A stretch of 64,000 bases of DNA, from NCBI RefSeq assembly GCF_056746865.1, contig NZ_CM163382.1; one strand, written 5' to 3'. The position numbers were made by a program, and so were the translations under genes. Of this stretch, positions 3,199-39,499 are shown one piece after another (positions within the stretch are counted from its first letter, which is position 1; every line of letters begins with the position of its first letter). The notes under the pieces were generated by a model. It ran no database searches. It saw only the letters and a list, made by a program, of their open reading frames with translations, and was not told the origin of the DNA.

Positions 3199-4077
3199 AT
3201 GAATAATCATTTCAAGTGTATTGGCATTGTGGGACACCCACGGCACCCTACTGCACTGACAACACATGAAATGCTCTACCGCTGGCTGTGCACAAAAGGT
3301 TACGAGGTCATCGTTGAGCAACAAATCGCTCACGAACTGCAACTGAAGAATGTGAAAACTGGCACGCTCGCGGAGATTGGGCAACTGGCTGATCTCGCGG
3401 TAGTCGTTGGTGGCGACGGTAATATGCTGGGCGCGGCGCGCACGCTCGCCCGTTACGATATTAAAGTTATTGGAATCAACCGTGGCAACCTGGGTTTCCT
3501 GACTGACCTTGACCCCGATAACGCCCAGCAACAGTTAGCCGATGTGCTGGAAGGTCACTACATAAGCGAGAAACGTTTTTTGCTGGAAGCGCAAGTCTGT
3601 CAGCAAGATTGCCAAAAGCGCATCAGCACCGCGATAAATGAAGTGGTACTTCATCCAGGCAAAGTGGCGCATATGATAGAGTTCGAAGTGTATATCGACG
3701 AGATCTTTGCGTTTTCTCAGCGTTCTGATGGCCTGATTATTTCGACGCCAACAGGCTCCACCGCCTATTCCCTCTCTGCGGGCGGTCCTATTCTGACCCC
3801 CTCTCTGGATGCGATTACCCTGGTGCCCATGTTCCCGCATACGTTGTCAGCGCGACCGCTGGTGATAAACAGCAGCAGCACGATCCGTCTGCGTTTTTCG
3901 CATCGCCGTAACGACCTGGAAATCAGTTGCGACAGCCAGATAGCACTGCCGATTCAGGAAGGTGAAGATGTCCTGATTCGTCGCTGTGATTACCATCTGA
4001 ATCTGATTCATCCGAAAGATTACAGTTATTTCAATACATTAAGCACCAAGCTCGGCTGGTCAAAAAAATTATTCTAA
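3199..4077 (+). CDS. nadK: NAD kinase
   Basis: 292-aa translation [17 protein letters not shown]... with GGDGN motif; conserved neighbour of grpE and recN. Confidence 0.95.
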
Positions 4078-4162
4078 TTTTACGCCAGCCTCTTTACTGT
4101 ATATAAAACCAGTTTATACTGTACACAATAACAGTAATGGTTTTTCATACAGGAAAACAACT

Positions 4163-5824
4163 ATGTTGGCACAACTGACCATCAGCAACTTTGCTATCGT
4201 TCGTGAGCTTGAGATTGATTTTCATAGCGGCATGACCGTAATAACTGGCGAGACCGGCGCGGGTAAATCTATTGCAATAGATGCCCTCGGCCTTTGTCTC
4301 GGTGGTCGCGCTGAAGCCGACATGGTGCGTACCGGCGCTGCTCGTGCCGACCTGTGCGCCCGTTTTTCTCTGAAAGATACGCCAGCGGCCCTGCGCTGGC
4401 TGGAAGAAAACCAGCTTGAAGACGGGCATGAATGTTTGCTTCGTCGCGTAATCAGCAGCGATGGTCGCTCACGAGGTTTTATCAACGGTACAGCGGTTCC
4501 TCTGTCACAACTGCGCGAACTGGGTCAGTTGCTGATTCAGATCCATGGTCAGCACGCTCATCAGTTACTCACCAAACCCGAGCACCAAAAATTCCTGCTT
4601 GATGGCTATGCCAATGAAACCTCTCTACTCCAGGAAATGACCGCACGTTATCAGTTGTGGCATCAAAGCTGCCGTGACCTCGCGCATCATCAACAGTTAA
4701 GTCAGGAACGCGCTGCCCGTGCGGAACTGCTGCAATACCAATTAAAAGAACTTAACGAATTTAATCCGCAGCCCGGAGAGTTTGAGCAAATCGACGAAGA
4801 GTACAAACGTCTGGCGAACAGCGGTCAATTGCTGACCACCAGCCAGAATGCATTGGCATTAATGGCCGACGGTGAAGACGCAAACCTGCAAAGTCAGCTT
4901 TACACGGCTAAACAACTGGTGAGCGAATTGATTGGCATGGACAGCAAACTGTCCGGCGTACTTGATATGCTGGAAGAAGCTACCATCCAGATTGCTGAAG
5001 CCAGCGACGAACTGCGCCACTACTGCGATCGTTTGGATCTCGATCCCAACCGGCTGTTTGAACTTGAACAACGCATCTCAAAACAGATTTCGCTGGCACG
5101 TAAACATCACGTCAGCCCTGAGGCATTGCCACAGTATTACCAGTCGCTACTGGAAGAACAGCAGCAACTGGACGATCAGGCCGACTCACAAGAAACGCTC
5201 GCGCTGGCGGTAACGAAACATCATCAGCAGGCACTGGAAACGGCGCGCGCGTTACACCAGCAACGCCAGCACTATGCAGAAGAACTTGCACAGCTGATCA
5301 CCGACAGTATGCATGCACTCTCTATGCCGCATGGGCAGTTTACGATTGATGTTAAATTTGACGAGCATCACCTGGGCGCTGACGGCGCTGATCGTATTGA
5401 ATTTCGGGTAACCACCAACCCAGGTCAGCCAATGCAGCCTATTGCCAAAGTCGCATCCGGTGGTGAATTGTCCCGCATCGCACTGGCAATTCAGGTCATC
5501 ACGGCGCGTAAAATGGAAACCCCGGCACTGATTTTTGATGAAGTGGATGTAGGGATTAGCGGTCCAACAGCGGCAGTTGTCGGCAAACTGCTGCGTCAAC
5601 TCGGCGAATCAACTCAAGTGATGTGTGTTACCCACCTGCCACAAGTCGCGGGATGTGGTCATCAACACTATTTTGTCAGCAAAGAAACCGATGGTGCGAT
5701 GACAGAAACGCATATGCAATCCCTGGATAAAAAAGCGCGGTTACAAGAGCTGGCGCGCCTGCTTGGTGGCAGTGAAGTCACACGTAACACACTGGCGAAT
5801 GCGAAAGAACTGCTTGCGGCGTAA
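4163..5824 (+). CDS. recN: DNA repair protein RecN (SMC-like ATPase)
   Basis: 553 aa; Walker A GETGAGKS near the N-terminus, coiled-coil middle, C-terminal signature region. Confidence 0.95.
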
Positions 5825-7132: not shown

Positions 7133-7263
7133 TTATCCTGCTGTAAAAAAAACGCTATCCCGGCGCTGGGTAACATCGGGTTCATGCTAAGATAGAGCCT
7201 TGTCCCCCGCAGGATTGATATGGGGTGTTTTCGATTTCAGATTACCGATGATTCACGACGCTT

Positions 7264-7960: not shown

Positions 7961-8323
7961 GGGGCTGATTCTGGATTCGACGGGATTTGCGAAACCCAAG
8001 GTGCATGCCGAGGGGCGGTTGGCCTCGTAAAAAGCCGCAAAAAATAGTCGCAAACGACGAAAACTACGCTTTAGCAGCTTAATAACCTGCTTAGAGCCCT
8101 CTCTCCCTAGCCTCCGCTCTTAGGACGGGGATCAAGAGAGGTCAAACCCAAAAGAGATCGCGTGGAAGCCCTGCCTGGGGTTGAAGCGTTAAAACTTAAT
8201 CAGGCTAGTTTGTTAGTGGCGTGTCCGTCCGCAGCTGGCAAGCGAATGTAAAGACTGACTAAGCATGTAGTACCGAGGACGTAGGAATTTCGGACGCGGG
8301 TTCAACTCCCGCCAGCTCCACCA
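7961..8323 (+). ncRNA. ssrA: tmRNA (SsrA), 363 nt, ending in CCA
   Basis: Starts ggggctgattctggattcgacggg; contains the tag-reading-frame region gcaaacgacgaaaactacgctttagcagcttaa (ANDENYALAA-stop); ends ...ggttcaactcccgccagctccacca. Confidence 0.95.
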
Positions 8324-8489: not shown

Positions 8490-9737
8490 ATGCCTAAGCA
8501 ACTGAAACCCTTAACAAATGTGGAGATCGCTGGCGCGAAGCCCCGTAGCACGGATTATGAGCTACGGGACGGTGAAGGCCTGTACTTGCTGGTTAAGACT
8601 TCAGGGAGGAAGGCCTGGCATTTCGAGTATTATCATCCCGTCACCAAAAAGCGCACCAAAACCAGCCTTGGCCCTTACCCGGTCGTTACACTGGCCATGG
8701 CTCGCGAAACTCGCACGAAATACAGACGACTGCTCTGGCAGGGCATCGATCCCCGTCAACACTTAGCAGGAATAGCCGAAGAAAAACGCCTCCAGAATGA
8801 ATGCACGCTGGAAAAAGTTGCGGAACAGTGGCTCAAAGAGAAGAAACGGACCAGCGACCTTAGCGAAGATCACGCCAAAGATGTCTGGCGCTCGCTGGAG
8901 ATGCACGTCTTCCCTTCTCTGGGCAGTACGCCCGTCACCGAGATCCGCCCGAAGATGCTCAAGGAACACCTCACCCCGCTGGAAGAACAGGGCATCCTCG
9001 AAACGCTGCGCCGGGTTATCTCACGGCTCAATGAAATCTTCCGCTTCGCCATCTCCGAAGAGCTTATCGAGTTTAACCCAGCAGACAACCTGGTCGCCCG
9101 CTTCAAGAAACCGAAAAAGCAGAACATGCCCGCCCTTCCCCCCAGCGAACTGGGCAGACTAATGTTGGCACTACAAAACGCCTCTATCCGCAAGGAAACA
9201 CGCTGCCTTATCGAATGGGAGCTACTGACCTGGGTTCGCCCCGGCGAAGCCGTTAGCGCCCGCTGGTGCGACATCGATATGAAAAAAGCGGAATGGCGTA
9301 TCCCTGACACCTTTATGAAGATGAACCGTTCACACACGGTGCCGCTCAGCAAACAGGCGCTGCGTGTTCTTCAGATCATGGAGCCCGTCAGCCGCCATCG
9401 TCCGTGGGTCTTCCCCAGCATCCGCAAACCGCTGGAGCACATGCACCAGCAGACCGCGAACGCCGCGCTTATCCGCATGGGGTTCGGCGGTGAGCTGGTC
9501 GCCCACGGCATGCGCAGCATCGCCAGAACGGCGGGCGCAGGTCATTTTCCCCGTGAAGTTCTGGAATCTGCACTGGCACACCAGAAAGAAGACGAGATCG
9601 AAGCGGCCTACAATCGCAGCGACTATCTGGAACAAAGGCGACCGCTCATGCAGTGGTGGGGAAACTACGTTGATGCCGCCAGACGGCAGGCATTGCTCGG
9701 TGAAGAAGAACCGCTGCGGATCGTGGAAGGAGAATAA
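8490..9737 (+). CDS. P4-type tyrosine integrase (IntA/SlpA-like)
   Basis: 415 aa; N-terminus MPKQLKPLTNVEIAGAKPRSTDYELRDGEGLYLLVKTSGRKAWHFEYYHP is the P4-integrase arm-binding type; C-terminal catalytic region with HxxR and Tyr; located directly next to ssrA. Confidence 0.9.
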   Translation: MPKQLKPLTNVEIAGAKPRSTDYELRDGEGLYLLVKTSGRKAWHFEYYHPVTKKRTKTSLGPYPVVTLAMARETRTKYRRLLWQGIDPRQHLAGIAEEKRLQNECTLEKVAEQWLKEKKRTSDLSEDHAKDVWRSLEMHVFPSLGSTPVTEIRPKMLKEHLTPLEEQGILETLRRVISRLNEIFRFAISEELIEFNPADNLVARFKKPKKQNMPALPPSELGRLMLALQNASIRKETRCLIEWELLTWVRPGEAVSARWCDIDMKKAEWRIPDTFMKMNRSHTVPLSKQALRVLQIMEPVSRHRPWVFPSIRKPLEHMHQQTANAALIRMGFGGELVAHGMRSIARTAGAGHFPREVLESALAHQKEDEIEAAYNRSDYLEQRRPLMQWWGNYVDAARRQALLGEEEPLRIVEGE

Positions 9738-10732: not shown

Positions 10733-11905
10733 TTAGAGAACCTTAGACTGTTCTGGGAACCAGTTATTAATTATATGTCTTCGACAGACTTTAGATATTT
10801 CAAATACCTGTCGTGACACTAATGCACCATCAGGATGGCGCTGGTCAGGTATGTCATTTTCTATGTCATAAAAATTATGCGTTATTTCTGGGGGAAAGAA
10901 AACGTTTTTGTCTAAAGGCACGCTTGCATAGGGATTATAATACACATGCAAACCATCAAAATGAGTTTCCTTGTAGTCCCTTGTTCGGCACATTACAATA
11001 TCCGCGCCAACAACCTCATTGTTGTAGAATTGTCGCTTCGTAGTAACATAATGGTCAGGACCAAGTTTTCTCGTATGAGAACCTTCGTTCTTCATACCTT
11101 CATTGGCAATAAAAACATTCACATCAAGAGCTCGGAATCTCGTATATCGGACATATCGATCGACCCGACTCTGAACGATAGCCTTACCAAAAGTACCTGT
11201 CGTTGAAAACACGATAGCACTGATTTCTTTGTATGAGTCATTTGTAAAAATACCTAAAGGTATTTCAGTGTCTTCATTTTTTTTAATCGATAAAACCCTT
11301 CTTTGCCTACCATTTACTAAATCTCTCATCGTAGGTTCTTCAATGCCAAACAATACCCGGTTAATGATTGTATTATTCTGGGTTAAAGATAGATCTGAAT
11401 CAAATGGGGCCAATGCTAACACAAAAGGCTTACCGATTACATGTTCCATTGTTGAGTATGGGAACTTCTTACCATTAATTCCGGTAAAGAGATCGCGCTT
11501 ATCTTTAATTTTCCCAAGAAGTTTTAGCGTAGATTGATGCTTAAACTTAGCTTCACTGAAAATTTCACTGACTGGCGGTTTATGGGGCTTGTCAGAGACC
11601 ATAGCCTCTACGTTAAATTTATAACCTAATGGCGTGCTAACACAAAAATCAGGACTGTCTTTTGTATAGTCAACCGAATACCCCAAACGAATAAACATCT
11701 CATTTAGATATAATTCCCACATAGAAGAATTAAAGGTAGTCTGAAATTCGTTAATAAATTTAGTTTGTTCACCACTGCGTTCCAGTAATCCGCGTCCCCA
11801 TGATTGGATCACCGCCCTAACAGGAGCAAGTTTAGGATCTGTGTAGATTGTTTTAAAATTGTGATTTAGTTTATTTCTAGCTATTTTTGTTGAGAAGAGA
11901 TCCAT
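10733..11905 (-). CDS. hypothetical protein, unassigned family (paralogue A); candidate defence or abortive-infection protein
   Basis: 390-aa AT-rich ORF. Shares conserved blocks with the 356-aa product of 33796..34866: EFQTTFNSSMWELYL vs EFQTSFEPCLWELYL, DSPDFCV vs DAPDFIV, FVLALAPFD vs FVIAIASFD, ISAIVFSTTGTFGKA vs VSAVIYSSLATWGKV, YNPYASVPL vs HNPFAKYPL. Confidence 0.7.
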   Translation of the reverse strand: MDLFSTKIARNKLNHNFKTIYTDPKLAPVRAVIQSWGRGLLERSGEQTKFINEFQTTFNSSMWELYLNEMFIRLGYSVDYTKDSPDFCVSTPLGYKFNVEAMVSDKPHKPPVSEIFSEAKFKHQSTLKLLGKIKDKRDLFTGINGKKFPYSTMEHVIGKPFVLALAPFDSDLSLTQNNTIINRVLFGIEEPTMRDLVNGRQRRVLSIKKNEDTEIPLGIFTNDSYKEISAIVFSTTGTFGKAIVQSRVDRYVRYTRFRALDVNVFIANEGMKNEGSHTRKLGPDHYVTTKRQFYNNEVVGADIVMCRTRDYKETHFDGLHVYYNPYASVPLDKNVFFPPEITHNFYDIENDIPDQRHPDGALVSRQVFEISKVCRRHIINNWFPEQSKVL

Positions 11906-28467: not shown

Positions 28468-29306
28468 GCGTCCTCCTGACAGAGCGGGAATAAATCATCC
28501 TCATACTGGAGCATCCCCATGATTTCCCGGACATAGTTATCGACATGCCCCAGAAAGTGAAAACGTTCCGGTGCGGCGCGATAGCGTTGATAAAGCGGCG
28601 TATCGAAGGTGATGCCAAGATGCGGGTTCCCTTTGACGGTGGCGAATTTGATGCGCGGAATATGCGGGTAGTAATGATTCTTGCGCACGCAGAGCTGCCC
28701 GTTCTCTTCCACGATGTAGCAGGCCATACCGTGATAAAACTGCACCGTGTCGTAGTGAACCGCGCAGGGTTTATAGGCCAGATTGCTGAACACCAGCGGC
28801 CCGTCGCCAATATTGATGGAGCAGTGGCCGTAATTCGGCGGCACGATAATGCTTTCCCCCTCCTTCACCACCGCCACGATAAGATCGTCCACCAGCAGAT
28901 CTTTTGGCGCGACTGCAAAATCCGGCGACTTTTGCAGGATATATGCCGCAGTCCCCTTAATCACTTCATATAATTCCGGATGGGTGTTGCGCCGCGTGTC
29001 GTTATAGCCGTGATAATGACCGCTGGTTTTCTTGCGCTCCCTACCAATCGTTCCCGACATGATGATGGTGATGTCGTACTGATACTGGTCGGCAGCAAGC
29101 CGTTCCTGATCCTCCGCAAAACTGAGCCCGCGATAAACATCGTAAGCCGGTTCATCACGCTGCGCTTCGGTGAACTCCGGTAAGACCACCGCCATCTGCC
29201 CGGCGCTTTTGCGGCCAAAGCCGAGATAGTTCAGCGGGGGTTTCAGCACCATCACGCCGTCGTCATCGAGATACAGCGGTAAGCCGCTGTGGTGTAGCTG
29301 TTTCAT
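28464..29306 (-). CDS. cupin-type sugar-phosphate isomerase-like protein (possible cupin glucose-6-phosphate isomerase family)
   Basis: 280 aa with TSGHYHG motif and conserved Glu/His further on, suggesting a metal-binding cupin; assignment tentative. Confidence 0.45.
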   Translation of the reverse strand: MKQLHHSGLPLYLDDDGVMVLKPPLNYLGFGRKSAGQMAVVLPEFTEAQRDEPAYDVYRGLSFAEDQERLAADQYQYDITIIMSGTIGRERKKTSGHYHGYNDTRRNTHPELYEVIKGTAAYILQKSPDFAVAPKDLLVDDLIVAVVKEGESIIVPPNYGHCSINIGDGPLVFSNLAYKPCAVHYDTVQFYHGMACYIVEENGQLCVRKNHYYPHIPRIKFATVKGNPHLGITFDTPLYQRYRAAPERFHFLGHVDNYVREIMGMLQYEDDLFPLCQEDA

Positions 29307-30829
29307 TTTGCCTCCTGTGTATACGCGTTAGCTGCGCGGATCGCCTCTTTCAGCCGATCGGATTTCATGCCAAAGACGCTTTGAATGTTGTTCCCGACCT
29401 CGACGACACCCGCCGCACCAAGCTGTTTCAGCAGCGCTTTGTCCACCAGCGACTTATCCGTCACGTCAATGCGCAGACGCGACATGCAGGCTTCGATGCG
29501 GGTCATATTCCCCAGCCCGCCATAGGCCAGAATGATGCCGCTCACCAGGTCGTTCTGTTCGTTTTCCTGCGCCACAGTGCTTTCTTCGACTTCACACCCC
29601 GGCGTCAGCAAATTCCAGCGGCGGATGGCAAAGGTAAACAGGGCGTAGTACACCGCTCCCATCACCAGCCCGACCGGGAACACCATGTACCAGTGAGGCG
29701 CGCGCGGCAGGACGCCAAAGAACAAATAGTCGATAAGCCCGCCGGAGAAAGAGAGCCCGATGTGCACGCTGAACCACTCCATCAGCAGGAACACCAGCCC
29801 CGCCAGGACGGCGTGAATGCCATATAGCACGGGCGCAACAAACAGGAAGGAGAACTCAATCGGCTCGGTGATGCCGCAGACGATGGAGGTGATCGCGCCA
29901 GAGAGCATAATGCCCTTCACCCGCGCTTTGTTTTCCGGGCTGGCGCAGCGGTAGATCGCCACCGCAATCGCCGGAATGCAGAACATCTTGATCGGCGTCA
30001 GCCCGGCCATAAAGGTTCCGGCGGTAATCGGCACCTGATCTTTCAACTGGGCAAAGAAGATAAGCTGGTCGCCATGCACCACCTGCCCGGCTTTGTTCAC
30101 GTACTCGCCAAACTGCAGCCAGAACGTCGGCCACCAGACATGGTTAAGACCAAACGGAATCAGCAGCCGCTCGACAAAACCGAACAGGAAGGCGGACACG
30201 CCCGGCCCCTGCACCGTCATAGTATTCGACAGGCCATTAATCAGATGCTGAACCGGCGGCCAGACCACCGTCATCACCAGCCCGACAAACAGCGCGGCGA
30301 AGGAGGTCACTATCGGCACAAATCGCTTGCCGGAGAAGAACTCCAGCCATGAAGGAAGCTGGATGCGGTAATAGCGTTTATACAGCCAGGCGGCGATAAT
30401 CCCGATAATGATGCCGCCAAACACGCCGGTCTGGAGCGAAGGGATGCCCAGCACCATCGTGTAGTCACGTACCTGCGCCACCGACTCGGGCGTGATCCCC
30501 AGAAACTGGCCGATGGTGACGTTCATAATCAGAAAACCGGCGATCGCCGACAACCCGGCAATCCCCTGATCGTCACTCAGTCCTACCGCCACGCCGACCG
30601 CAAACAGCAGCGGCAGGTTAGCGAAAATCGCACTGCCCGCTTCAGCCATCAGCTTCAGCACGTGAACCAGCCAGTCAGCGCCGAGAAACGGCAGGCTGGC
30701 GACAATATTGGGATCCTGAAAGCTGACGCCGAAGGCCAGCAAAATACCGGCGGCAGGCAGCATGGCAATGGGGATCATTAACGATCGCCCGATGCTTTGT
30801 AACATTTGCAGAAGGTTGAATCTTTTCAT
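29303..30829 (-). CDS. PTS EIICB component, glucose/N-acetylglucosamine family
   Basis: 508 aa; multi-pass EIIC domain followed by an EIIB domain with phosphorylatable Cys (GNMTRIEACMSRLRI). Confidence 0.85.
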   Translation of the reverse strand: MKRFNLLQMLQSIGRSLMIPIAMLPAAGILLAFGVSFQDPNIVASLPFLGADWLVHVLKLMAEAGSAIFANLPLLFAVGVAVGLSDDQGIAGLSAIAGFLIMNVTIGQFLGITPESVAQVRDYTMVLGIPSLQTGVFGGIIIGIIAAWLYKRYYRIQLPSWLEFFSGKRFVPIVTSFAALFVGLVMTVVWPPVQHLINGLSNTMTVQGPGVSAFLFGFVERLLIPFGLNHVWWPTFWLQFGEYVNKAGQVVHGDQLIFFAQLKDQVPITAGTFMAGLTPIKMFCIPAIAVAIYRCASPENKARVKGIMLSGAITSIVCGITEPIEFSFLFVAPVLYGIHAVLAGLVFLLMEWFSVHIGLSFSGGLIDYLFFGVLPRAPHWYMVFPVGLVMGAVYYALFTFAIRRWNLLTPGCEVEESTVAQENEQNDLVSGIILAYGGLGNMTRIEACMSRLRIDVTDKSLVDKALLKQLGAAGVVEVGNNIQSVFGMKSDRLKEAIRAANAYTQEAK

Positions 30830-31051
30830 CTCGATCTCCTGAGCGCGTCTTTATGACAGGGATTCGCACAACAGCAGGTTCTGCTCCGAACACCTTCAGT
30901 ATCCGAACCGGAGATGATTAAAAAAACAGCAACCGACAACGAAAGTTATTTCCGGTTTTCGCTTAAAACCGGAAAATTTATGAGGACAATCACGCCGGAA
31001 ACCGTGAGAAAGGGATAAAAGAGGAAATCGCGTTCGGTGGGAGGCCATCAT

Positions 31052-32731
31052 ATGAGTATCTTCGAGGCGCATTTTCGCAGGCTGCACGCCCGCTACGGCG
31101 CAGGTCAGACGCACGAATTACAGATGCAGGAGATCGCCGCCATCTTCGGCTGTTCAGTGCGTAATTGCCGGATTGCTTTGAAAAAGATGCATCAGGAAAA
31201 ATGGCTCGACTGGCAGCCCCAGCGCGGGCGTGGCAAGCGCTCACGGCTCCACCTGTTAACCTCGCCGGAAAAGCTGTTCAGCCAGAACGTCAATAAGCTA
31301 CTGGAGAAGCAGGATTACGGCAACGTGCTGCGGTTTATCGGCAACGACAAGTATCTGCTGGATCGCCTGAGCCTGTGGCGCTTTGGGGTACAGGATAAAA
31401 GCAGTGAAACGCGGGTGCGCATCCCCTACTATCGCAATCTGGATCCGCTTAACCCGCTCGTCCCCCTGCGGCGGACCGAACGACATCTCCTGCGACAGTG
31501 CCTCAGCGGGCTGACGCGCTATGACGCCGTTCAGGGCAGGATCATCCCCGATATCGCCCACTACTGGACCCACAACGACGACTTTACCCGCTGGGAGTTC
31601 TGGCTGAAATCCACCGCCCGCTTTGCCGATGGCAGCGAACTGAATGCCAGCGCCGTTCAGCGCTGCCTGCTCGCCGCCAGCCAGAGCCCGCAGTTCGCGC
31701 CGCTTTTCAGCCCAATCAAAACCATCACCGCTGACGCCCCCTGGCATCTGGTGATTGAAACGTACCATCCGGTCAGACGGCTCGACTGCCTGCTCGCCAC
31801 TCAGCCGACGATGCTGTTCGATTACCAGCACGGACACATCCGCTGTACCGGCGCTTTCCACCTGCAGGAACACAGTGACAACTTTATGGTTTTGCGGCGC
31901 AATCAACACTGGCACCAGGCGAGGCCCGGACTGGATGAGATCACCATTTTCACCTGGGCTCCGGAGCATATCAGCATGAGCTTTATTCCCCTGCTGCGGG
32001 GCGAAGAGGCGCAGGATGACCGCCCGCTCAACGAGCGTAGTCTGGAGCAGGGCTGCTGTTTTGTGCTGCTCGACGGTGAAGGTGCCTTTGCGGATGAGGC
32101 CGGAAGACGGTTTATCAATTACCTGCTGCAACCTGTCGAACTCCTCAGCCAGACGCAGCTTCCTGACGAATACGCACGCATCCTCTCCGTTGCTCAGGGC
32201 ATGCTGCCGCAGTGGAATCACCGCCCGGTGGATTTCGGCGGGATCACCGCGCCGTTTAACCTGCGTCAGCCGGTTATCATCAGCACCTTTCAGCAGCCGG
32301 AACTGGTGGAGCTTGCCGGAGCGATTCGCATCCTGCTTGAACGCTGGCATATTCGCGCCGAGATACGGATCGACGCATTTGACAGCTTCAACAGCCAGCC
32401 GCGCCCTCCTGCGGATATCTGGCTCAGCAACTTTATGCTCGATACCCTTTCGGTTCCGGCTTTTCTGGAATGGCTGGCTTCCACCACGCTGTTTACGCGA
32501 CTGCCTGAAACCCAGCGACAAAACCTGAACGCCCTGCTGCCGACCATTCTGAACAGCGATAATGAACAGGCGTTCGCAACCATTGCCGCCTTTTTCCATG
32601 AGATGACCCACCAGCGATATGTCATTCCTTTGCTACATCACTGGATGGAATTTGCGACCGAGAAGTCATTTACCTGGCGCGATTTAAATACGCTGGGATG
32701 GCCGGATTTTAGCCAACTTTGGCTCGAATAA
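31052..32731 (+). CDS. SgrR-family transcriptional regulator (N-terminal HTH plus solute-binding-protein family 5 domain)
   Basis: N-terminus MSIFEAHFRRLHARYGAGQTHELQMQEIAAIFGCSVRNCRIALKKMHQEKWLDWQPQRGRGKRSRLHLL parallels SgrR (...WLTWEAEVGRGKRSRLTFL); divergent from the PTS operon; GGGAGG Shine-Dalgarno before ATG 31052. Confidence 0.8.
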   Translation: MSIFEAHFRRLHARYGAGQTHELQMQEIAAIFGCSVRNCRIALKKMHQEKWLDWQPQRGRGKRSRLHLLTSPEKLFSQNVNKLLEKQDYGNVLRFIGNDKYLLDRLSLWRFGVQDKSSETRVRIPYYRNLDPLNPLVPLRRTERHLLRQCLSGLTRYDAVQGRIIPDIAHYWTHNDDFTRWEFWLKSTARFADGSELNASAVQRCLLAASQSPQFAPLFSPIKTITADAPWHLVIETYHPVRRLDCLLATQPTMLFDYQHGHIRCTGAFHLQEHSDNFMVLRRNQHWHQARPGLDEITIFTWAPEHISMSFIPLLRGEEAQDDRPLNERSLEQGCCFVLLDGEGAFADEAGRRFINYLLQPVELLSQTQLPDEYARILSVAQGMLPQWNHRPVDFGGITAPFNLRQPVIISTFQQPELVELAGAIRILLERWHIRAEIRIDAFDSFNSQPRPPADIWLSNFMLDTLSVPAFLEWLASTTLFTRLPETQRQNLNALLPTILNSDNEQAFATIAAFFHEMTHQRYVIPLLHHWMEFATEKSFTWRDLNTLGWPDFSQLWLE

Positions 32732-33082
32732 TGCTACGCCCGCAAAAGCTCGCTAAAGGGCCTTTAAAGGCCTTTAAGGGTAAGGGAGGGAAGTGCGGGA
32801 TTTGGGGCGGGGAACGGTAGACAAATTCAGTCCTCACGACGGAGACTGTTCAAATGTCTCTGTACTGACGCCCCAATATGGCTTTACCACCGTCTCCGAT
32901 TGTTGAACACGTCAATGTCATCGAAGATATCTGCACGATCCAGATCCTGGGTTTTGTAGGCCCGTTTTCTGATGCACTGCTTTTTCAGCGAACTGAAGCA
33001 AGGCCATAGAAGTAAAACAGTACCGCTGGCAACTGGGCATTTTCTCGCTTTAGCGGAGACCAACAGTATGCTTAGATTCAGT

Positions 33083-33622
33083 TTATGCCGTCAGCCGATA
33101 GTGCGACTGCACCAGACCCGAAGGGAAGCTGCGGCTGGATAATAGCGTCAAATCGATATCATGGGGTAATACTCCGAATAGCGGTTTTCCCGAACCGAGC
33201 AGAACAGGAACAGTTGTGATAACGATATCGGCAACCAGACCTTCGCGCAGGAACGACTGTATTAACTGCCCGCCATCGATATAAACCCGGTGCACGTTCT
33301 TCTCCATAAGGTCAGCAAGAGCCTCCCTTGGCGTGCGGCATGAAAACTGTACTTTACCCTTCAGCGCCTTGGGCACGGGGGTATCGGTTAGCTGCCGGGA
33401 AAGCACCAGCACGGGCCGATCATAAGGCCATTCGTCAAAAGTCAGCACCTTCTCATAGGTGCCTCGTCCCATAATGATCCAATCTTTGTCCGCGATGAAT
33501 GCGGCATAGCCATGATCTTCTGTCGGGTCATCGCGCTTTAACAGCCAGTCGATATCGCCATCCTGTCGGGCGATATAACCATCAAGACTGACCGCGATGA
33601 AAACATGTGTGGTGACCATCAA
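33083..33622 (-). CDS. dihydrofolate reductase-like / RibD C-terminal domain family protein
   Basis: 179 aa; MMVTTHVFIAVSLDGYIARQDGDIDWL...IIMGRGTYE...VLSRQ pattern of the RibD_C/DHFR-like family. Confidence 0.7.
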   Translation of the reverse strand: MMVTTHVFIAVSLDGYIARQDGDIDWLLKRDDPTEDHGYAAFIADKDWIIMGRGTYEKVLTFDEWPYDRPVLVLSRQLTDTPVPKALKGKVQFSCRTPREALADLMEKNVHRVYIDGGQLIQSFLREGLVADIVITTVPVLLGSGKPLFGVLPHDIDLTLLSSRSFPSGLVQSHYRLTA

Positions 33623-33678
33623 GTGCTCCGTTTTCAGGTTGCATATATCTCGTTGAGTTTAGCAATGTTCGCTCCAGG

Positions 33679-33738
33679 CACGAAGCGAGCAAGTTACCTA
33701 AGTTGAAGGTCCGCAGGGAGCGAGGAGCAGAAGTTCGA
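33679..33738 (+). repeat. about 60-bp imperfect direct repeat, copy 1 (upstream of paralogue B)
   Basis: cacgaagcgagcaagttacctaagttgaaggtccgcagggagcgaggagcagaagttcga; about 70 percent identical to copy 2, with perfect blocks cacgaagcga, gaaggtccg, gagcgagga, gaagttc. Confidence 0.55.
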
Positions 33739-33843
33739 AGCACATCATGAAGTAAGTTTTAAAATGGGAGATAACTTGCTTTTACATATTTTCCAATGCA
33801 ATATCATACCCTTTTAAAAATAAATCAGATATATGAGGTGAAA

Positions 33844-34866
33844 ATGTCTAGTCTTAATTTATTCGATGATGTCGTACCTTTAGAAAAACAGCATCCAATA
33901 TATATAATGATGAAAAAGGAACGCTATGAACCGGAGAGAGAAGTAATTAACCAATGGGCAAAAGGATTTCTAGACAGGGATAATAAGTTTACAAAAGAAT
34001 TTCAAACAAGTTTTGAACCTTGCCTATGGGAGTTATATCTTTTTGCTTATCTTAAAGAATTGGGTTTAAGGAACGACTTTTCATACGATGCACCTGACTT
34101 CATCGTCAATGAACCTGGGTTTTGCATTGAGGCAACCATAGCCCTTCCGGCACAAGGAGCCCCTGGAGCGCATGGTTTCAGTACGGAAGATATGCCAAGA
34201 GATTTTAATAAGTTTAATTCTGAGGCATCTATTCGACTTAGCAATAGTTTTATATCAAAGGTAAAAAAATTAAGATCGAGATATTCTCAACTTCCTCAAT
34301 GTAAAGAAAAACCTTTTGTTATCGCCATAGCTTCCTTCGACCGACCTTTTGCGCACTTTGCCGCAGCCAGACCCATACTTGCAACATTATATGGTTTATA
34401 TCATGATGAAGAAGCAACCATTGAATCAGGATCAAAGAGCATAATTTCTTATAACGTTGAGGCTGCGGTAAAAAAAGAAAATGTTAATATAGCCATGGGG
34501 TTATTTTGCACGCCTGATTATTCGGATGTAAGTGCTGTGATTTATAGTAGTTTAGCTACTTGGGGAAAAGTAAGAGCTTTGGCGGACAATCCTTCAGCTC
34601 TAACAATTTATACAACCTTTACCCCAAGAGAAAATTCATTATATCCTAAAGTTCATCAAGCCAAAAAAAATGATTATATAGAGCATCTGGCAGATGGATT
34701 GTATATTTTACATAACCCATTTGCCAAGTATCCGTTGCCTAAAGAGACGCTAAGCCACCCTAGAGTAGCACAAGGTTATGTTGAATCTGATGGATACGTC
34801 AATTTTGTAGCGCCAGAGGATTTTCTTTTATTGCGTTTTTTACAATCATTCAATCTTAAAGATTAG
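33844..34866 (+). CDS. hypothetical protein, same unassigned family as 10733..11905 (paralogue B); candidate defence or abortive-infection protein
   Basis: AT-rich; GAGGTG Shine-Dalgarno before ATG 33844 (ORF opens at 33796); shares the motif blocks listed for paralogue A; flanked by the about 60-bp direct repeats. Confidence 0.7.
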   Translation: MSSLNLFDDVVPLEKQHPIYIMMKKERYEPEREVINQWAKGFLDRDNKFTKEFQTSFEPCLWELYLFAYLKELGLRNDFSYDAPDFIVNEPGFCIEATIALPAQGAPGAHGFSTEDMPRDFNKFNSEASIRLSNSFISKVKKLRSRYSQLPQCKEKPFVIAIASFDRPFAHFAAARPILATLYGLYHDEEATIESGSKSIISYNVEAAVKKENVNIAMGLFCTPDYSDVSAVIYSSLATWGKVRALADNPSALTIYTTFTPRENSLYPKVHQAKKNDYIEHLADGLYILHNPFAKYPLPKETLSHPRVAQGYVESDGYVNFVAPEDFLLLRFLQSFNLKD

Positions 34867-35065
34867 TAAATATGGTCATATTTATTTACTTTACATAGAT
34901 AAAGTCTAAAGATGGCACTTCCTTTAAACTCAACTACCTATGATTTAGAGTGGTTGTCCGGCCTGCTTCCGTAACCGTTAGTTCGACTGACGAGATTCCT
35001 GTTTCCCTCTAAAAGACTTGGTTGATTAAAACAGGTCACCGAATAGCCATTTAGTCCACTTTGAC

Positions 35066-35125
35066 CACGAAGCGACCGAACTAACTGAGCAGAAGGTCCG
35101 TTATGAGCGAGGAACGGAAGTTCAC
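35066..35125 (+). repeat. about 60-bp imperfect direct repeat, copy 2 (downstream of paralogue B)
   Basis: cacgaagcgaccgaactaactgagcagaaggtccgttatgagcgaggaacggaagttcac; see copy 1. Confidence 0.55.
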
Positions 35126-35196
35126 AGTTGATCTCACACCCAAATAGTCGCATTACTAACATTGCTGCGTGTTAATCAACAGGCAGCAGGTCACTC

Positions 35197-36294
35197 TTAT
35201 TTTCTTGATAGGCTTTGTATAGTATGAATAAACCTTACAAAGTTATGAAGAAGCTCGTGATTTTCCTCTGATATACCATCTGGGTCAAAGTGCATCACGT
35301 CGTTACGAATTATTCTGACCTTGTCGAGCTCTTTAGTAAATATTTTCTTATCTATTTGAAGTTCGGTTTTTTTCCACAATTCTGGATTTTCAAAAAGTCG
35401 TATATATTCCCCAAAGGTTAAATCTGCGACCGACTCTATAACCCGTTCGCTGTCAAATGGATTAACGATGCTAACAAGCTCATCTTTCGTAAATTTTCCA
35501 TCTATCAGCTTACGAATATGATTTTCGATTTCAGATAGTAAAAGAAAAGGTTCTGACAACTGTCTGAACTGAGAACTAAGATCGGTAGTAGTTATAATCC
35601 CACTAATTCTTTGATCAGAAGATCGCACTAATACGTAAGCATACTCAATAATTCTAGGTAGTGCAGAAAAAATAGAGTCACTGGCGTTTATTTCCCTGTG
35701 TGGCTTCATATAATCACGCACAACCGCAGATTCTGATTGGGTCAACGCTAGTATTGGAGCAATGCTTTCCCAACTAATAACACCTTTAACATCTCGCTCG
35801 CTGGTCATAACGGGTAGTTGAGAGTAGTCATGCCGCAACATCAATGTGATGGCTTCTGTTAATGTAGCGTCAGGTTTCACGGTCACTAGTTTAACATCCG
35901 ATGCTTCGAGTCGACTAACACGGAAGGCTGGCTCGGAAACTGCACCGGAAATTAGTTCATCATGCGGCTGAAATACTGTTTCAGGTGTAGCCAATTCGGC
36001 GTTACTTGATTCGGTTTCTTCATGTAAACATTCACCTGCTTCATGGGGCGTTGCGTCATTCCCCGGAGGTGCATAGATAGTAATTTTTGCATCCAGCGGC
36101 ACACTATCAAAATCAGGTTCGGTTTTAACTCCTAAGCTTTCTAATGCTTTGCGAATTTTGTACGCAACCATGTAGCCTCGACGCTCTGCGCCAAACCAGC
36201 TTATGAATTCTCGCACTGATACTGGGTTTGAGGACATACCGTCTTTTAGTTCACGAAGGATTTCGTTAAGTCTTTCTCGATTTTCTACTGCCAT
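35197..36294 (-). CDS. CBS-domain pair protein with C-terminal HEPN-like (Rx4-6H) domain; predicted nucleotide-regulated RNase-type effector
   Basis: 365 aa; CBS-like segments (TLTEAITLMLRHDYSQLPVM...VKGVISWESI and ISGIITTTDLS) followed by a helical C-terminal region with RNDVMHFD; AT-rich. Confidence 0.6.
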   Translation of the reverse strand: MAVENRERLNEILRELKDGMSSNPVSVREFISWFGAERRGYMVAYKIRKALESLGVKTEPDFDSVPLDAKITIYAPPGNDATPHEAGECLHEETESSNAELATPETVFQPHDELISGAVSEPAFRVSRLEASDVKLVTVKPDATLTEAITLMLRHDYSQLPVMTSERDVKGVISWESIAPILALTQSESAVVRDYMKPHREINASDSIFSALPRIIEYAYVLVRSSDQRISGIITTTDLSSQFRQLSEPFLLLSEIENHIRKLIDGKFTKDELVSIVNPFDSERVIESVADLTFGEYIRLFENPELWKKTELQIDKKIFTKELDKVRIIRNDVMHFDPDGISEENHELLHNFVRFIHTIQSLSRK

Positions 36295-36940
36295 AAAATT
36301 TTCTCCATGTAGGTTGTCGGCTACTGTTAGGTTTCAATCTTGATTCAGGCTTCTCACGCTTTTTTTAAAATCTGGACAACGAGGCTGCACTGACTTTTTC
36401 AGCTCACCTCAGATTGCACCATCCCATACACATAGCTCAGATTCCTAATGTTCAGTATAAGGAGGCCAGAATACGAATTGCCCTTACCGCTAGTGCCAGC
36501 GCGTTGAGTTTAGTAGATGCCTTATTCATTTAGAATTTGATAAAAATACAAGACTCGGACAACAAGCTGCAATATTAATCGTTATTTTTCCACTCGAGGC
36601 CCACCGTCCGTTTCTGGCACAGGGCTGCTGTTGCAGCCCTGAAAACCTTAGACTTCAATCGATTCAAAGATCTCTAATGCATCATCTACTTCAATACCCA
36701 GATAACGGACTGTGCTTTCCAGTTTCTTATGGCCCAACAGAAGTTGGATCACCCGAAGATTCTTAGTTTTCTTGTAGATAAAGTAGGGTTTTGTTCTTCT
36801 CATGGAACGTGTGCTGTAAAGCGAATCTTCGAGACCAAGCTTTCCTGCCCACCCATGAAAGATTCGGTTGTATTGTAGGGTTGATATGAACCGCCCCGGA
36901 AATCCTGGAGACTAAACTCCCTGAGAAAGAGGTAAACAGG

Positions 36941-37267
36941 ATGACTAAAAATACTCGTTTTTCCCCCGAAGTCCGTCAGCGGGCGATTCGTATGGTTCTG
37001 GAAAGTCAGGATGAATATGACTCACAGTGGGCGGCAATTTGTTCCATTGCCCCAAAGATTGGCTGTACGCCGGAGACTCTGCGTGTCTGGGTTCGCCAGC
37101 ATGAGCGGGATACCGGGGGCGGTGATGGTGGGCTCACCAGCGCTGAACGTCAGCGTCTGAAAGAGCTGGAACGTGAAAATCGTGAACTGCGCCGCAGTAA
37201 CGATATCCTTCGCCAGGCTTCCGCTTATTTTGCGAAGGCGGAGTTCGACCGCCTCTGGAAAAAATGA
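36941..37267 (+). CDS. IS3-family transposase OrfA (HTH)
   Basis: 108 aa [57 protein letters not shown]...; ends in an A6 run that overlaps the OrfB start (candidate -1 frameshift site). Confidence 0.9.
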
Positions 37268-38154
37268 TGCCACTGCTGGATAAGCTGCGTGAGCAGTACG
37301 GGGTCGGACCGGTATGCAGCGAACTGCATATTGCCCCGTCAACGTATTACCATTGTCAGCAACAGCGACATCATCCGGATAAACGCAGTGCCCGTGCGCA
37401 GCACGACGACTGGCTGAAGAGAGAGATACAGCGCGTATACGATGAAAATCATCAGGTGTACGGTGTGCGTAAAGTCTGGCGTCAGTTGTTACGGGAAGGA
37501 ATCAGGGTGGCCAGATGTACAGTGGCACGTCTCATGGCGGTTATGGGACTTGCCGGTGTTCTCCGGGGTAAAAAGGTCCGTACGACCATCAGCCGGAAAG
37601 CCGTTGCCGCAGGCGACCGCGTAAACCGTCAGTTCGTGGCAGAACGACCTGACCAGCTGTGGGTGGCTGATTTTACTTACGTCAGCACATGGCAGGGCTT
37701 CGTCTATGTGGCGTTTATCATTGATGTGTTTGCCGGATACATCGTGGGGTGGCGGGTCTCATCGTCTATGGAAACGACATTCGTGCTGGATGCGCTGGAG
37801 CAGGCGTTGTGGGCCCGTCGTCCGTCTGGCACCATCCATCACAGCGATAAAGGCTCTCAGTATGTGTCACTGGCCTATACGGAGCGACTAAAAGAAGCCG
37901 GATTACTGGCATCAACAGGGAGTACAGGCGACTCGTATGACAACGCGATGGCTGAGAGCATCAATGGTCTTTACAAAGCGGAGGTAATACACCGTAAGAG
38001 CTGGAAAAACCGTGCAGAAGTGGAACTGGCCACACTAACGTGGGTGGACTGGTATAACAATCGACGATTGCTGGGAAGGCTGGGCCATACTCCTCCGGCA
38101 GAAGCAGAAAAAGCTTATTATGCTTCCATCGGAAACGATGATCTGGCAGCCTGA
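37264..38154 (+). CDS. IS3-family transposase OrfB (DDE integrase core)
   Basis: 296 aa with DDE-type catalytic core (...[30 protein letters not shown]...[10 protein letters not shown]...[15 protein letters not shown]). Confidence 0.9.
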
Positions 38155-38923
38155 GTTCACAGATAAAACACTCTCCAGGAAACCCGGGGCGGTTCAATAT
38201 GTGCTGATTAGTTCCGATACGAGACCGGAACAAGAAGTCTTTATTGTGCAAATAATCAAGCTTTATCAATGCAGCAATAGCTTCTCTTGTTCCTTTGGTT
38301 ATCTCAAATTGCACAGGGCTACCGGTTTTCTGTTGCAACACCGTTGCTCTGCTTGAAACCAAGCGACCATATGCCACATCAGATACTTTGAGTTTGACCA
38401 GATCACAGCCTCGAAGCTTACTGTCCAGGGCCATATTGAACAGAGCTAAATCGCGCGTTTTGCCTTCCAGTTCAAGCCGGATTCGGGTCCCCCAGATATG
38501 AGATATCTGAAGTGGTCTTTTTTGGCCGATGATACGGTCTTTGTTCCACGGTGACGTGTTCATACTCAAATCTCCTGCAATGTGGGAGATTTGAGTATGG
38601 TTGTCCCTTATGAGCGCAGGCTGTGTGAAAACACTCACCAAATACTAAAATGTATGAGGTTATGCAAAATCTGGAATCAATCAGCTGATTATCAGAGTCG
38701 AATTTTACGTAGGGAAGATATTTTCAGCTCTGTTTTAGGCCATTTCTGCACTCAAAAACGTTTTCACACAGCCGCGGTCAGATCGCAATCTTGCACCACA
38801 ATCTGGTACGAGTCAGGCAAGCATTTGGGGTGAAAGCCTGTCCTGAGTGAGAATCTAACCAAGCATTGTGTTATGTTTAACAACTGGAGTAGACTACAAA
38901 ATCAATTAATTAAGGATCTTGAG

Positions 38924-39499
38924 ATGACTATAGCCGCAGCTTGGGTAAGAACTTTAAGAAATTGCAAAGAATTGATTGTAGTATCAGATAGTAGATTAAA
39001 TGGTGGTATGAAAATGGATTGTGGGCAGAAGATAATAACTCTGCCTCGTTCAGATGCTTTCATATGTTTCGCAGGTGATACTAGTTGGGCATATCCTTTG
39101 ATGCATCAAGTGGCATCAGCAATTGATATATATGATCGTTGCTCCTCACGAGCCCAAGATATTAAAGAACTCAAAACCCATATTCTTAAAATTTTTGAAC
39201 GACTGAGAGAGCAAATTCACGATGCCATAGGTGACATGGATATACCCGATGCAAAATTCATATTCGGGGGATATTCATGGATAAGAAAAAAATTCATGAT
39301 TTGGCACATCACCTACCAAAAGAGTACCAACTCTTTTCGTGCGGATCCTGCACGTGAAATATATGGATCACCTGTTGTATTTACTGGTGATGAAGAACAT
39401 GTAATTGTAGCTAATGCTATGCTTCGTGAAAAATTAAAATCAAGAGGGAAGCTGGATAATTTAGAAAAAGGCATGAAAAATACTGTTAAATTTGAATGA
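38924..39499 (+). CDS. HslV/proteasome beta-subunit-like Ntn-hydrolase-fold protein (tentative)
   Basis: From ATG 38924 (AAGGA Shine-Dalgarno; ORF opens at 38873) the product MTIAAAWVRTLRNCKELIVVSDSRLNGGMKMDCGQKIITLPRSDAFICFAGDTSWAYPLMHQ parallels HslV ([61 protein letters not shown]), with Thr directly after the initiator Met; AT-rich. Confidence 0.45.
   Translation: MTIAAAWVRTLRNCKELIVVSDSRLNGGMKMDCGQKIITLPRSDAFICFAGDTSWAYPLMHQVASAIDIYDRCSSRAQDIKELKTHILKIFERLREQIHDAIGDMDIPDAKFIFGGYSWIRKKFMIWHITYQKSTNSFRADPAREIYGSPVVFTGDEEHVIVANAMLREKLKSRGKLDNLEKGMKNTVKFE

Follow-up and report, generated by a model that had tools for sequence, protein, structure and literature searches.

The window analysed here is a stretch of 64,000 nt (contig NZ_CM163382.1, RefSeq assembly GCF_056746865.1) that consists of E. 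coli DNA from a genomic island at the ssrA/ypjA locus. Near its middle, a gene of the PD-T7-5 anti-phage family (nt 33844–34866) lies between two imperfect direct repeats, copy A and copy B, which an earlier note made from the sequence alone had described as the borders of a cassette. Each repeat consists of two palindromic sites, named a and b, and belongs to a dispersed family that separates accessory genes in a fixed order. From comparative evidence, the repeats are probably the junction sites of an integron-like cassette-exchange system with two heterospecific sites and a 200 aa tyrosine recombinase. A wider reading is put forward more tentatively: the recombinase and its sites may represent an unrecognised form of natural cassette exchange in Gammaproteobacteria, in which cassettes of one or a few genes, many of them anti-phage genes, move among prophage hotspots (P2 Z/fun, Rac-like and other lambdoid prophages, e14), genomic islands, integrative and conjugative elements (ICEs) and plasmids.

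Structure of the repeats

Nucleotides 33679–33736 and 35066–35123 form an ungapped direct repeat of 58 nt with 44 identical positions (76%), where the earlier note had given about 70 percent, and the four conserved blocks it listed (cacgaagcga, gaaggtccg, gagcgagga, gaagttc) are exact in both copies. The similarity is above background, as patterns built from the conserved blocks had no match in 100 dinucleotide-preserving shuffles, and half-patterns from the same blocks, with up to 3 mismatches allowed, match only the two repeat places in the 64 kb. The bracketed gene is a real open reading frame (ORF) and is annotated as a coding sequence in RefSeq genomes. The true element begins about 12 nt to the left of the borders first drawn (copy A, nt 33667–33732; copy B, nt 35054–35119); the 58 nt repeat runs from the middle of site a to slightly beyond site b, and AGTTC follows directly after both copies. 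The 3.8 kb around the pair has a counterpart of ≥99% identity in 131 of 5426 complete E. coli genomes. Copy A is 81% identical over 79 nt to a copy in E. coli SE11 and 76% identical to copy B, which shows that A and B are independent members of a dispersed family and rules out a local duplication as their origin.

Each copy is a composite of about 66 nt, made up of a palindromic site a, a linker of 10–18 nt and a palindromic site b. The consensus of site a is GTCCGCT-yc-TGGCAC-ar-AGCGGAC (GTCCGCT-CCTGGCACGA-AGCGGAC in the alignment of composites) and that of site b is GTCCGCT-nt-GAGCGA-gg-AGCGGAC (GTCCGCT-GTGAGCGAGG-AGCGGA in the same alignment, where the linker reads GAGTTAACTGAGCTGAAG). This pattern, two palindromes with 7-nt arms around a conserved centre, holds across the family, and the two kinds of site share their arms but differ in their 6-nt centres (TGGCAC versus GAGCGA). 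The centres are not palindromic, and they are the best-conserved positions of the sites, a degree of conservation that is inflated because sites were chosen partly by their centre. Across 188 a sites and 163 b sites, the arms change mainly on one side and compensating pairs are rare, as expected of double-stranded sites that bind a protein; a single-stranded DNA or RNA hairpin model was dropped for the same reason. The elements of the two composites in the window are as follows.

33667–33690, plus strand: site a of composite A, GTTCGCT-CCAGGCACGA-AGCGAGC, with palindromic arms and a TGGCAC-type centre
33691–33708, plus strand: linker of composite A, 18 nt, AAGTTACCTAAGTTGAAG, aligned with other composites
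33709–33732, plus strand: site b of composite A, GTCCGCA-GGGAGCGAGG-AGCAGAA, with a GAGCGA-type centre; left edge of the PD-T7-5 cassette
35054–35077, plus strand: degenerate site a of composite B, GTCCACT-TTGACCACGA-AGCGACC; right edge of the PD-T7-5 cassette
35078–35095, plus strand: linker of composite B, 18 nt, GAACTAACTGAGCAGAAG
35096–35119, plus strand: site b of composite B, GTCCGTT-ATGAGCGAGG-AACGGAA, with a paired C>T / G>A arm change

The degenerate site a of composite B was assigned by family alignment and by an nhmmer profile match over nt 35045–35131. A structured RNA was considered and rejected: an Rfam scan of nt 33000–36500 gave chance matches only, and both copies fold no better than shuffles on either strand (z between -0.9 and +1.0). 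No terminator-like site was found in nt 33550–36700, and no T-tract follows the palindromes.

Some variation was seen around the sites. A stretch of about 75 nt that adjoins site b of composite B on its right (nt 35120–35194) is common to other loci at 75–85% identity (e.g., locus L008 from ~5079), so that a conserved junction can reach beyond site b. Tandem expansions were found inside a b site of strain Z0117, (GAGCGAA)n (L004, ~4040–4095), and adjoining an a site in Proteus, (GCACAGTAA)n (L134, ~8660–8700).

Distribution and order of the sites

A sensitive BLAST search with copy A found related stretches of 65–80 nt at other unannotated, intergenic places in E. coli, namely a lambdoid prophage near Q, an O157 island, e14-like elements near pinE and intE/icd, the P2 tail-sheath/tail-fibre hotspot and an island at ychF. 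Each of them adjoins a 'hypothetical' gene, and copy numbers are low (1–2 detectable places per E. coli genome). When one genome per species was searched with the exact b pattern, at least 120 matches were returned, almost all from Enterobacterales; those listed include Enterobacter, Citrobacter, Erwinia, Pantoea, Rahnella, Serratia, Pectobacterium, Kluyvera and other genera, together with a few Idiomarina or Aliidiomarina and one Pseudomonas plasmid. Viral contigs likewise gave at least 120 matches to this pattern. The site family spans Enterobacterales, some marine Gammaproteobacteria and many prophages, and all of its copies are intergenic. The same repeats surround other cargo genes at well over 100 further loci, which supports the cassette interpretation.

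A profile scan of related loci showed that further copies separate successive genes, while the sites at the borders are single, with b on the left and a on the right. In the P2 hotspot of locus L007, for example, there is a b site at 3981–4004, a composite at ~5001–5067 and an a site at 7147–7170. E. coli SE11 (L002) has three composites, and other arrays have up to 5, spaced 600–2000 bp apart, most of them with no recombinase gene nearby. Neighbouring sites lie on the same strand in 82 cases and on opposite strands in 1 (p = 2e-23) in the genome set, and in 127 versus 5 cases in the viral set, which is independent. The order of sites in the viral set is b to a at a distance in 70 cases, a to b adjacent in 40 and a to b at a distance in 4; in the genome set, 24 pairs fit the rule that b is followed by a across the cargo. 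Arrays are built as b-cargo-a-linker-b-cargo-a, with a fixed polarity of the sites but not of the genes. Cargo genes have the same or the opposite orientation to the sites in ratios of 30:25 (genome set) and 24:27 (viral set), a random arrangement that fits a role of the sites at the level of DNA rather than of transcripts.

The window carries such an array, consisting of a gene of the dihydrofolate reductase (DHFR) family, composite A, the PD-T7-5 gene, composite B, a DS-11 gene, a variant a site (a*), a split recombinase gene, a variant b site (b*) and further cargo.

The sites as module boundaries

Between different loci, 100 of 322 ends of BLAST aligned segments (≥250 bp, ≥80% identity) fall within 20 nt of a site, and sites make up only ~1.5% of the sequence. 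The ends cluster at the edges of sites because the whole site is conserved. The crossover was placed in or near the centre solely by comparisons of P2-like phages and of recombinase modules. P2-like phages with different Z/fun cargo have a common backbone as far as GTCTGCTTTGA on the left side and again from approximately (G)ACACAGAGCGGAC on the right, so that the breaks in homology fall within or beside the centres of b (left) and a (right). In L007 and L129–L132, which carry a variable gene between G and FI, b follows the FI side and a precedes the G side, and the inner arms of both are specific to the cargo.

Cassettes with the same borders recur in unrelated elements. The cassette at 5044–7170 of L007, which encodes a 505 aa protein in the P2 hotspot, is also found in a CP4-like island (99%, L144) and in a Rac-like prophage (92%, L145), and in each element homology begins at b and stops at a. 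The proposal that the gene in the window is a discrete, repeat-bounded cassette is supported by such cases, in which homology between unrelated mobile elements ends at the repeats. That it arrived by recombination between repeats stands in part: cassettes would be exchanged at the repeats, but a site-specific reaction at defined sites describes the process better than homologous recombination between duplicated DNA does. A nearly empty hotspot was found in the Rac-like prophage of E. coli A20 (hokD/DUF977 interval; L146, 1740–2013), where the left half of a b site and an intact a site enclose ~230 bp of non-coding filler.

A small tyrosine recombinase between variant sites

To the right of the DS-11 gene, the window carries a recombinase gene and its flanking sites in the following arrangement.

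36606–36629, plus strand: site a*, GTCCGTT-TCTGGCACAG-GGCTGCT; left arm and centre of the standard form, right arm a variant of the recombinase module and part of a hairpin directly past the recombinase stop codon
36648–36887, minus strand: 3' part of the recombinase gene (residues 122–200 plus stop), by tblastn against the intact L001 copy
36888–38197, plus strand: IS3-family insertion sequence (orfA 36941–37267, orfB 37264–38154) that interrupts the recombinase gene
38198–38563, minus strand: 5' part of the recombinase gene (residues 1–122), by tblastn against the intact L001 copy
38564–38596, no strand assigned: palindrome ACTCAAATCTCC-N8-GGGAGATTTGAGT over the recombinase ribosome-binding site, part of the conserved module
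38603–38626, plus strand: site b*, GTCCCTT-ATGAGCGCAG-GCTGTGT; left arm and centre are part of the recombinase module

Other strains that have the same island carry an intact recombinase gene, among them 2017C-4173W12, from which the insertion is absent (L001, 23849–24451). The encoded protein of 200 aa consists of a catalytic domain only, with PF00589 as its sole Pfam domain (precomputed annotation), and shows the signature of the tyrosine recombinase superfamily (R...K...HxxR...H/W...Y within the PF00589 domain). Among 20 homologues, R51, K79, R151, H174 and Y183 are invariant and H148 is present in ≥90%. The copy in the window and in L001 carries H148R, a change in the His of the HxxR motif, and the recombinase of this lineage may therefore be impaired even where its gene is free of the insertion sequence. 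With its split recombinase gene, the H148R change and several decayed arms, the copy of the array in the window is probably frozen.

Homology of the recombinase module to other genomes starts exactly at a* in the window and ends within the GAGCG centre of b*; across E. coli genomes with other neighbours, it likewise extends from a* to the centre of b*. In general, a* lies ~20 nt past the 3' end of the gene and has an altered right arm (GTCCGyTyyTGGCAC-AGGGCTGCT), and b* lies on the 5' side and has an altered left arm (GTCCCTTATGAGCG...). The DNA outside a* and b* is unrelated between loci. The layout a*-recombinase-b*, with the gene transcribed from b* towards a*, was found in every context examined (window/L001, L011, L033, L088, L098, three Proteus contexts, a marine ICE, Nissle 1917, a Rac-like prophage, a plasmid and two viral contigs), and one identical Proteus protein keeps it in three different contexts. 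Nissle 1917, the Rac-like prophage and the plasmid show the extended arrangement b-cargo-a*-[recombinase]-b*-cargo-a(-linker-b-cargo-a). In Nissle 1917 (L141), b is at 7979, a* at 9005, the intact recombinase gene at 9047–9649, b* at 9688 and a at 11191. In these contexts the recombinase gene always occupies the position of a linker and never that of cargo.

The gene is common, being present in 967 of 5426 (18%) complete E. coli genomes, including the probiotic strain Nissle 1917 and 42 places on plasmids. Homologues were also found in 6 of the ~120 loci that had been fetched solely for a b site, where a rough estimate of the chance expectation lies far below one. The family is very large; it numbers more than 7900 clusters when E ≤ 1e-20 is required, and 679 representatives (of clusters at 50% identity) when E ≤ 1e-30 is required. 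Its members in Enterobacterales, Proteus/Providencia, Idiomarina and other marine Gammaproteobacteria are 75–90% identical. Other database matches were to distant Xer/FimB-like proteins only, and sequence searches found no relative in the PDB. More distant homologues (49–55% identity) occur on short contigs, one of which still has a GTCCG..GCGGAC site past the gene, and the arm sequence seems to be retained over large distances.

Two side observations concern the module. A palindrome similar to that over the ribosome-binding site (AAATCTC...GAGATTT) is kept in the Proteus copies (L133–L135, ~7965–8000); the element could act as an operator or in the control of translation. On a high-GC metagenome contig (L269, 1135–1200), a recombinase that shares only 49% identity with the Proteus query copy P0025 still precedes a terminator-like hairpin, past which lies GTCCGTTTCTGGGGGTGAAAGCGGAC.

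Proposed mechanism and alternative explanations

The grammar of the arrays, the boundaries of the modules and the position of the enzyme gene are observed; from them we infer that the protein binds the sites, that strands are exchanged and that the centres of a and b are incompatible. Sites a and b would correspond approximately to tyrosine-recombinase core sites of ~9-6-9 bp with shared arms and different 6-nt centres. The recombinase would bind the GTCCGCT/AGCGGAC arms and exchange strands in the centre, and since a and b have different centres, productive events would be limited to a×a and b×b. Within an array, b×b or a×a recombination would release a circle of cargo plus an a-linker-b composite. 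Such a circle could enter any a or b site elsewhere and would then form the arrangements 'b...composite' and 'composite...a', both of which are observed. Between two DNA molecules, b×b together with a×a would swap cassettes and leave b and a on the backbone; in all P2 phages examined, the backbone does retain b and a. If only like centres recombine, the observed grammar follows.

Several points weigh against this interpretation. The support is comparative throughout, and neither a circle, an empty site nor a reciprocal junction was seen directly; a search with a chimeric flank query found no truly empty site, the emptiest being the A20 Rac-like hotspot. BLAST is unable to place the crossover within a site, whole sites being conserved. 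Most arrays have no recombinase gene within 5–10 kb, so that action in trans must be assumed, and the recombinase-proximal arms of a* and b* depart from the consensus. In the genome set, 8 of 32 site pairs violate the order rule. The AlphaFold2 model of the recombinase is too poor for use (predicted local distance difference test score, pLDDT, of 48).

An alternative is that the sites are real module boundaries at which another enzyme acts, such as XerCD, a phage enzyme, or SbcCD palindrome processing followed by repair, and that the recombinase gene is a passenger. A recombinase gene is nearby in only 6 of ~120 genome loci and 2 of 120 viral loci among the matches listed, cassettes are found in P2 hotspots though P2 has no recombinase gene, and the 9-6-9 layout is geometrically like that of Xer-type sites. 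We nevertheless regard a passenger as unlikely, given that the module always lies between a and b (the linker position) and never between b and a (the cargo position), in a single orientation, which is unlike an ordinary passenger. Both kinds of site are also found at the borders of the recombinase gene itself in distant genera, and they have no sequence in common with the known dif or cer consensus sequences. Somewhat less likely again is that the palindromes are structural or regulatory (REP-like, insulating terminators or mRNA stabilisers) and that cassettes are exchanged by homologous or microhomology recombination. The sites are indeed intergenic palindromes, often just beyond the 3' ends of genes, and some border copies extend to long perfect hairpins (e.g., L003, 2966–2996, and the P2 flanks ATCTGACA/TGTCAGAT). 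They lack a T-tract, terminator-like features (nt 33550–36700), folding beyond that of shuffles and any Rfam match, however, and cargo orientation is random with respect to them. Conservation is highest in the non-palindromic centres, of which there are two kinds in a fixed order, while compensating arm changes are rare; arms of 7–9 bp are too short for RecA-dependent exchange, and there are 1–2 places per E. coli genome where REP sequences number in the hundreds.

Single-strand transposition of the IS200/IS605 or REP/RAYT kind, in which the hairpins would be element ends moved by an HUH (Y1) transposase, is very improbable. Similar hairpins with different left and right loops, arranged in tandem, do recall the ends of IS608, but clustering of 1288 ORFs from the loci gave no recurrent transposase-like family, the recurrent enzyme being the tyrosine recombinase; arm variation is mainly one-sided and selection on hairpin folding is not visible. 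The suggestion of the earlier note, that the repeats are leftovers of a duplicated coding segment and that the gene arrived by recombination between them, has hardly any credibility left as far as its coding origin is concerned. In six-frame translation the two copies share one open frame with similar peptides (HEASKLPKLKVRRERGAEV / HEATELTEQKVRYERGTEV) that ends a few codons on, and five successive mismatches are spaced by 3. Conservation tracks the palindromic arms and the centres rather than codons, copy A is nearer to the SE11 copy than to copy B, and more than 100 other copies are intergenic beside unrelated genes; a linker of 10–18 nt, not tied to multiples of 3, together with the intergenic position everywhere, excludes a coding relic. 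Site-specific cassette exchange by the linked recombinase is preferred over these alternatives.

Cargo genes

The genes carried between the sites of the window are as follows.

33083–33622, minus strand: DHFR-family (RibD C-terminal-like) cargo gene to the left of copy A, by ORF, RefSeq annotation and weak NCBIfam/PHROG DHFR matches
33844–34866, plus strand: PD-T7-5-family single-gene anti-phage system (340 aa), the bracketed cassette
35197–36294, minus strand: CBS-domain anti-phage protein (DS-11 family), the next cassette, NCBIfam NF053863 DS11_antiphage
38873–39499, plus strand: the cargo gene that follows b* on the right, with a product of 208 aa and without a family match

The product of the bracketed gene matches the PADLOC PD-T7-5 profile over its full length (E = 8e-102; residues 4–335 against profile positions 1–340 of 346) and has no Pfam match. 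It is a member of the PD-T7-5 family, and defence by this allele is predicted. PD-T7 systems came from a functional selection in E. coli (bioRxiv 10.1101/2022.05.12.491691). The DS-11 gene scores 404.9 bits against NF053863 (cut-off 260) and is labelled 'CBS domain-containing anti-phage protein' in newer RefSeq records. Homologues of the DHFR-family gene adjoin sites in L010 and L095; in the window, the left border of its cassette has been lost to a remnant of an IS3-family element (~32834–32997). At the other end, the site scan found no closing a site to the right of 38873–39499, which indicates that the right end of the array has decayed.

Elsewhere, cargo beside recombinase genes includes PD-T7-1 and HEC-08, and 9 of 20 large cargo proteins from viral contigs match PADLOC families (e.g., NsnA, PtuA, PDC-M38A, PycC and PD-T7-1). 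Chromosomal cargo in other genera includes LysR and AraC regulators, SDR and OYE reductases, MFS and LysE exporters, and arsBC. No known family could be assigned to about half of the sampled cargo; cargo genes of this kind include 38873–39499 in the window and 4230–4964 and 5340–6857 in L007. On the marine ICE-like contigs L137/L138 (4898–8645), an ars operon (arsR, arsC-type phosphatases, ACR3) is placed between b* and an a site, with the recombinase gene adjoining it and copper-resistance genes on the other side; cassettes can thus be multi-gene resistance operons.

In the window, a gene for an SgrR-family regulator and the DHFR-family gene (29303–33622) are neighbours, as they are beside a composite site in the enterobacterial locus L095 (3682–6375; compare L010, 6402–7051), which makes it probable that this part of the E. 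coli island came in along with the array. A second PD-T7-5-family gene is present at 10853–11905 on the minus strand (PADLOC, 432 bits), in a low-GC patch of the same island. It is 26% identical to the gene at 33844–34866, and the site scan of the window detected no a or b sites near it. A supposed paralogue near 47.9 kb proved to be a chance repeat match inside a ypjCB gene.

Significance and comparison with known systems

The rapid movement of defence genes between hotspots of unrelated mobile elements still calls for an explanation, and a preprint of March 2026 on P2/P4 hotspots states that the recombination processes 'still need to be elucidated'. The a/b layout may explain this movement. 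It supplies parts that can be tested, namely two defined sites of 24–30 bp, a fixed array grammar and a candidate enzyme in 18% of complete E. coli genomes. In the literature searched, coverage of which was incomplete, we found no account of the recombinase, the two-site grammar, the composites, the arrays or their spread beyond P2 and E. coli, and no record of the a and b site sequences. If the proposal is true, it would account for the swapping of defence cassettes and supply the missing mobilisation mechanism, give a sequence flag for the discovery of new defence genes, offer a compact natural tool for cassette exchange and extend the integron concept to Enterobacterales and their phages. 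The finding looks like an opening onto a general cassette-exchange system.

One part of the system has a precedent. The fun gene of P2 lies between inverted repeats allowing site-specific exchange with bacteria (Nilsson, Karlsson & Haggard-Ljungquist 2004, Mol Biol Evol 21:1, as cited in a review). The Z/fun cargo of P2-like phages lies between b and a, and in this comparison of location the b and a sites are very likely the same inverted repeats, so that this part was already known. The genes also resemble phage morons in being single extra genes, often protective, between conserved phage genes. Morons are defined by their own promoter and terminator, whereas the borders here are recombination-type sites common to unrelated elements.

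Short intergenic palindromes that are sometimes paired, with a linked enzyme gene between its own sites, recall repetitive extragenic palindromic (REP) sequences, BIMEs and the REPIN-RAYT system. The a and b sites differ in their low copy number, in being linked to a tyrosine recombinase and not an HUH transposase, and in marking the borders of cargo with two types of centre in a fixed order. They differ from intrinsic terminators in that nt 33550–36700 contain no terminator-like site, fold z-scores of the two copies are near 0 and the sites have no set orientation to genes. The use of flanking sites that share arms and differ in the spacer, like recombining with like, is familiar from recombinase-mediated cassette exchange (loxP/lox2272, FRT/F3), which is a laboratory design and not a natural system; a and b would form a natural counterpart, with incompatibility of their centres as a proposed property.

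The closest likenesses are to pdif modules and integrons. In the pdif modules of Acinetobacter plasmids, 28-nt XerC/XerD sites alternate in orientation and are thought to use the host XerCD. As in the a/b arrays, short core-type sites, each with arms around a 6-nt centre, delimit discrete accessory modules, which are concatenated on various replicons. The a and b sites, however, are co-oriented (82:1 and 127:5), have two types of centre and include an embedded gene for a dedicated small recombinase. Their arms (GTCCGCT/AGCGGAC) are unlike those of dif (consensus GGTGCGCATAA-TGTATA-TTATGTTAAAT). Like integrons, the arrays consist mostly of single-gene cassettes split by imperfect palindromic sites of ~60–70 nt and have a linked tyrosine recombinase; many lack the recombinase, as do CALINs (clusters of attC sites lacking integron-integrases). 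IntI integrases have about 320 aa and an IntI-specific extra domain, whereas the enzyme linked to a and b has 200 aa, and its best NCBIfam match (XerA / 'integron integrase') reaches 46 bits against a cut-off of 220. Compared by inspection with attC, the composites have two 7-10-7 palindromes, without the R''-L''...L'-R' arrangement and without GTTRRRY, and each a/b junction consists of two separate palindromes with different centres. Cargo genes are randomly oriented with no common promoter apparent, and the recombinase gene lies inside the array at a junction and not beside attI. The a/b arrays are found in prophage hotspots, islands and plasmids of Enterobacterales. Anti-phage genes are among their cargo, and such cargo has recently been reported for chromosomal integrons as well (bioRxiv 10.1101/2024.07.02.601686). 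The a/b system acts like integrons or pdif modules yet lacks the features that define either.

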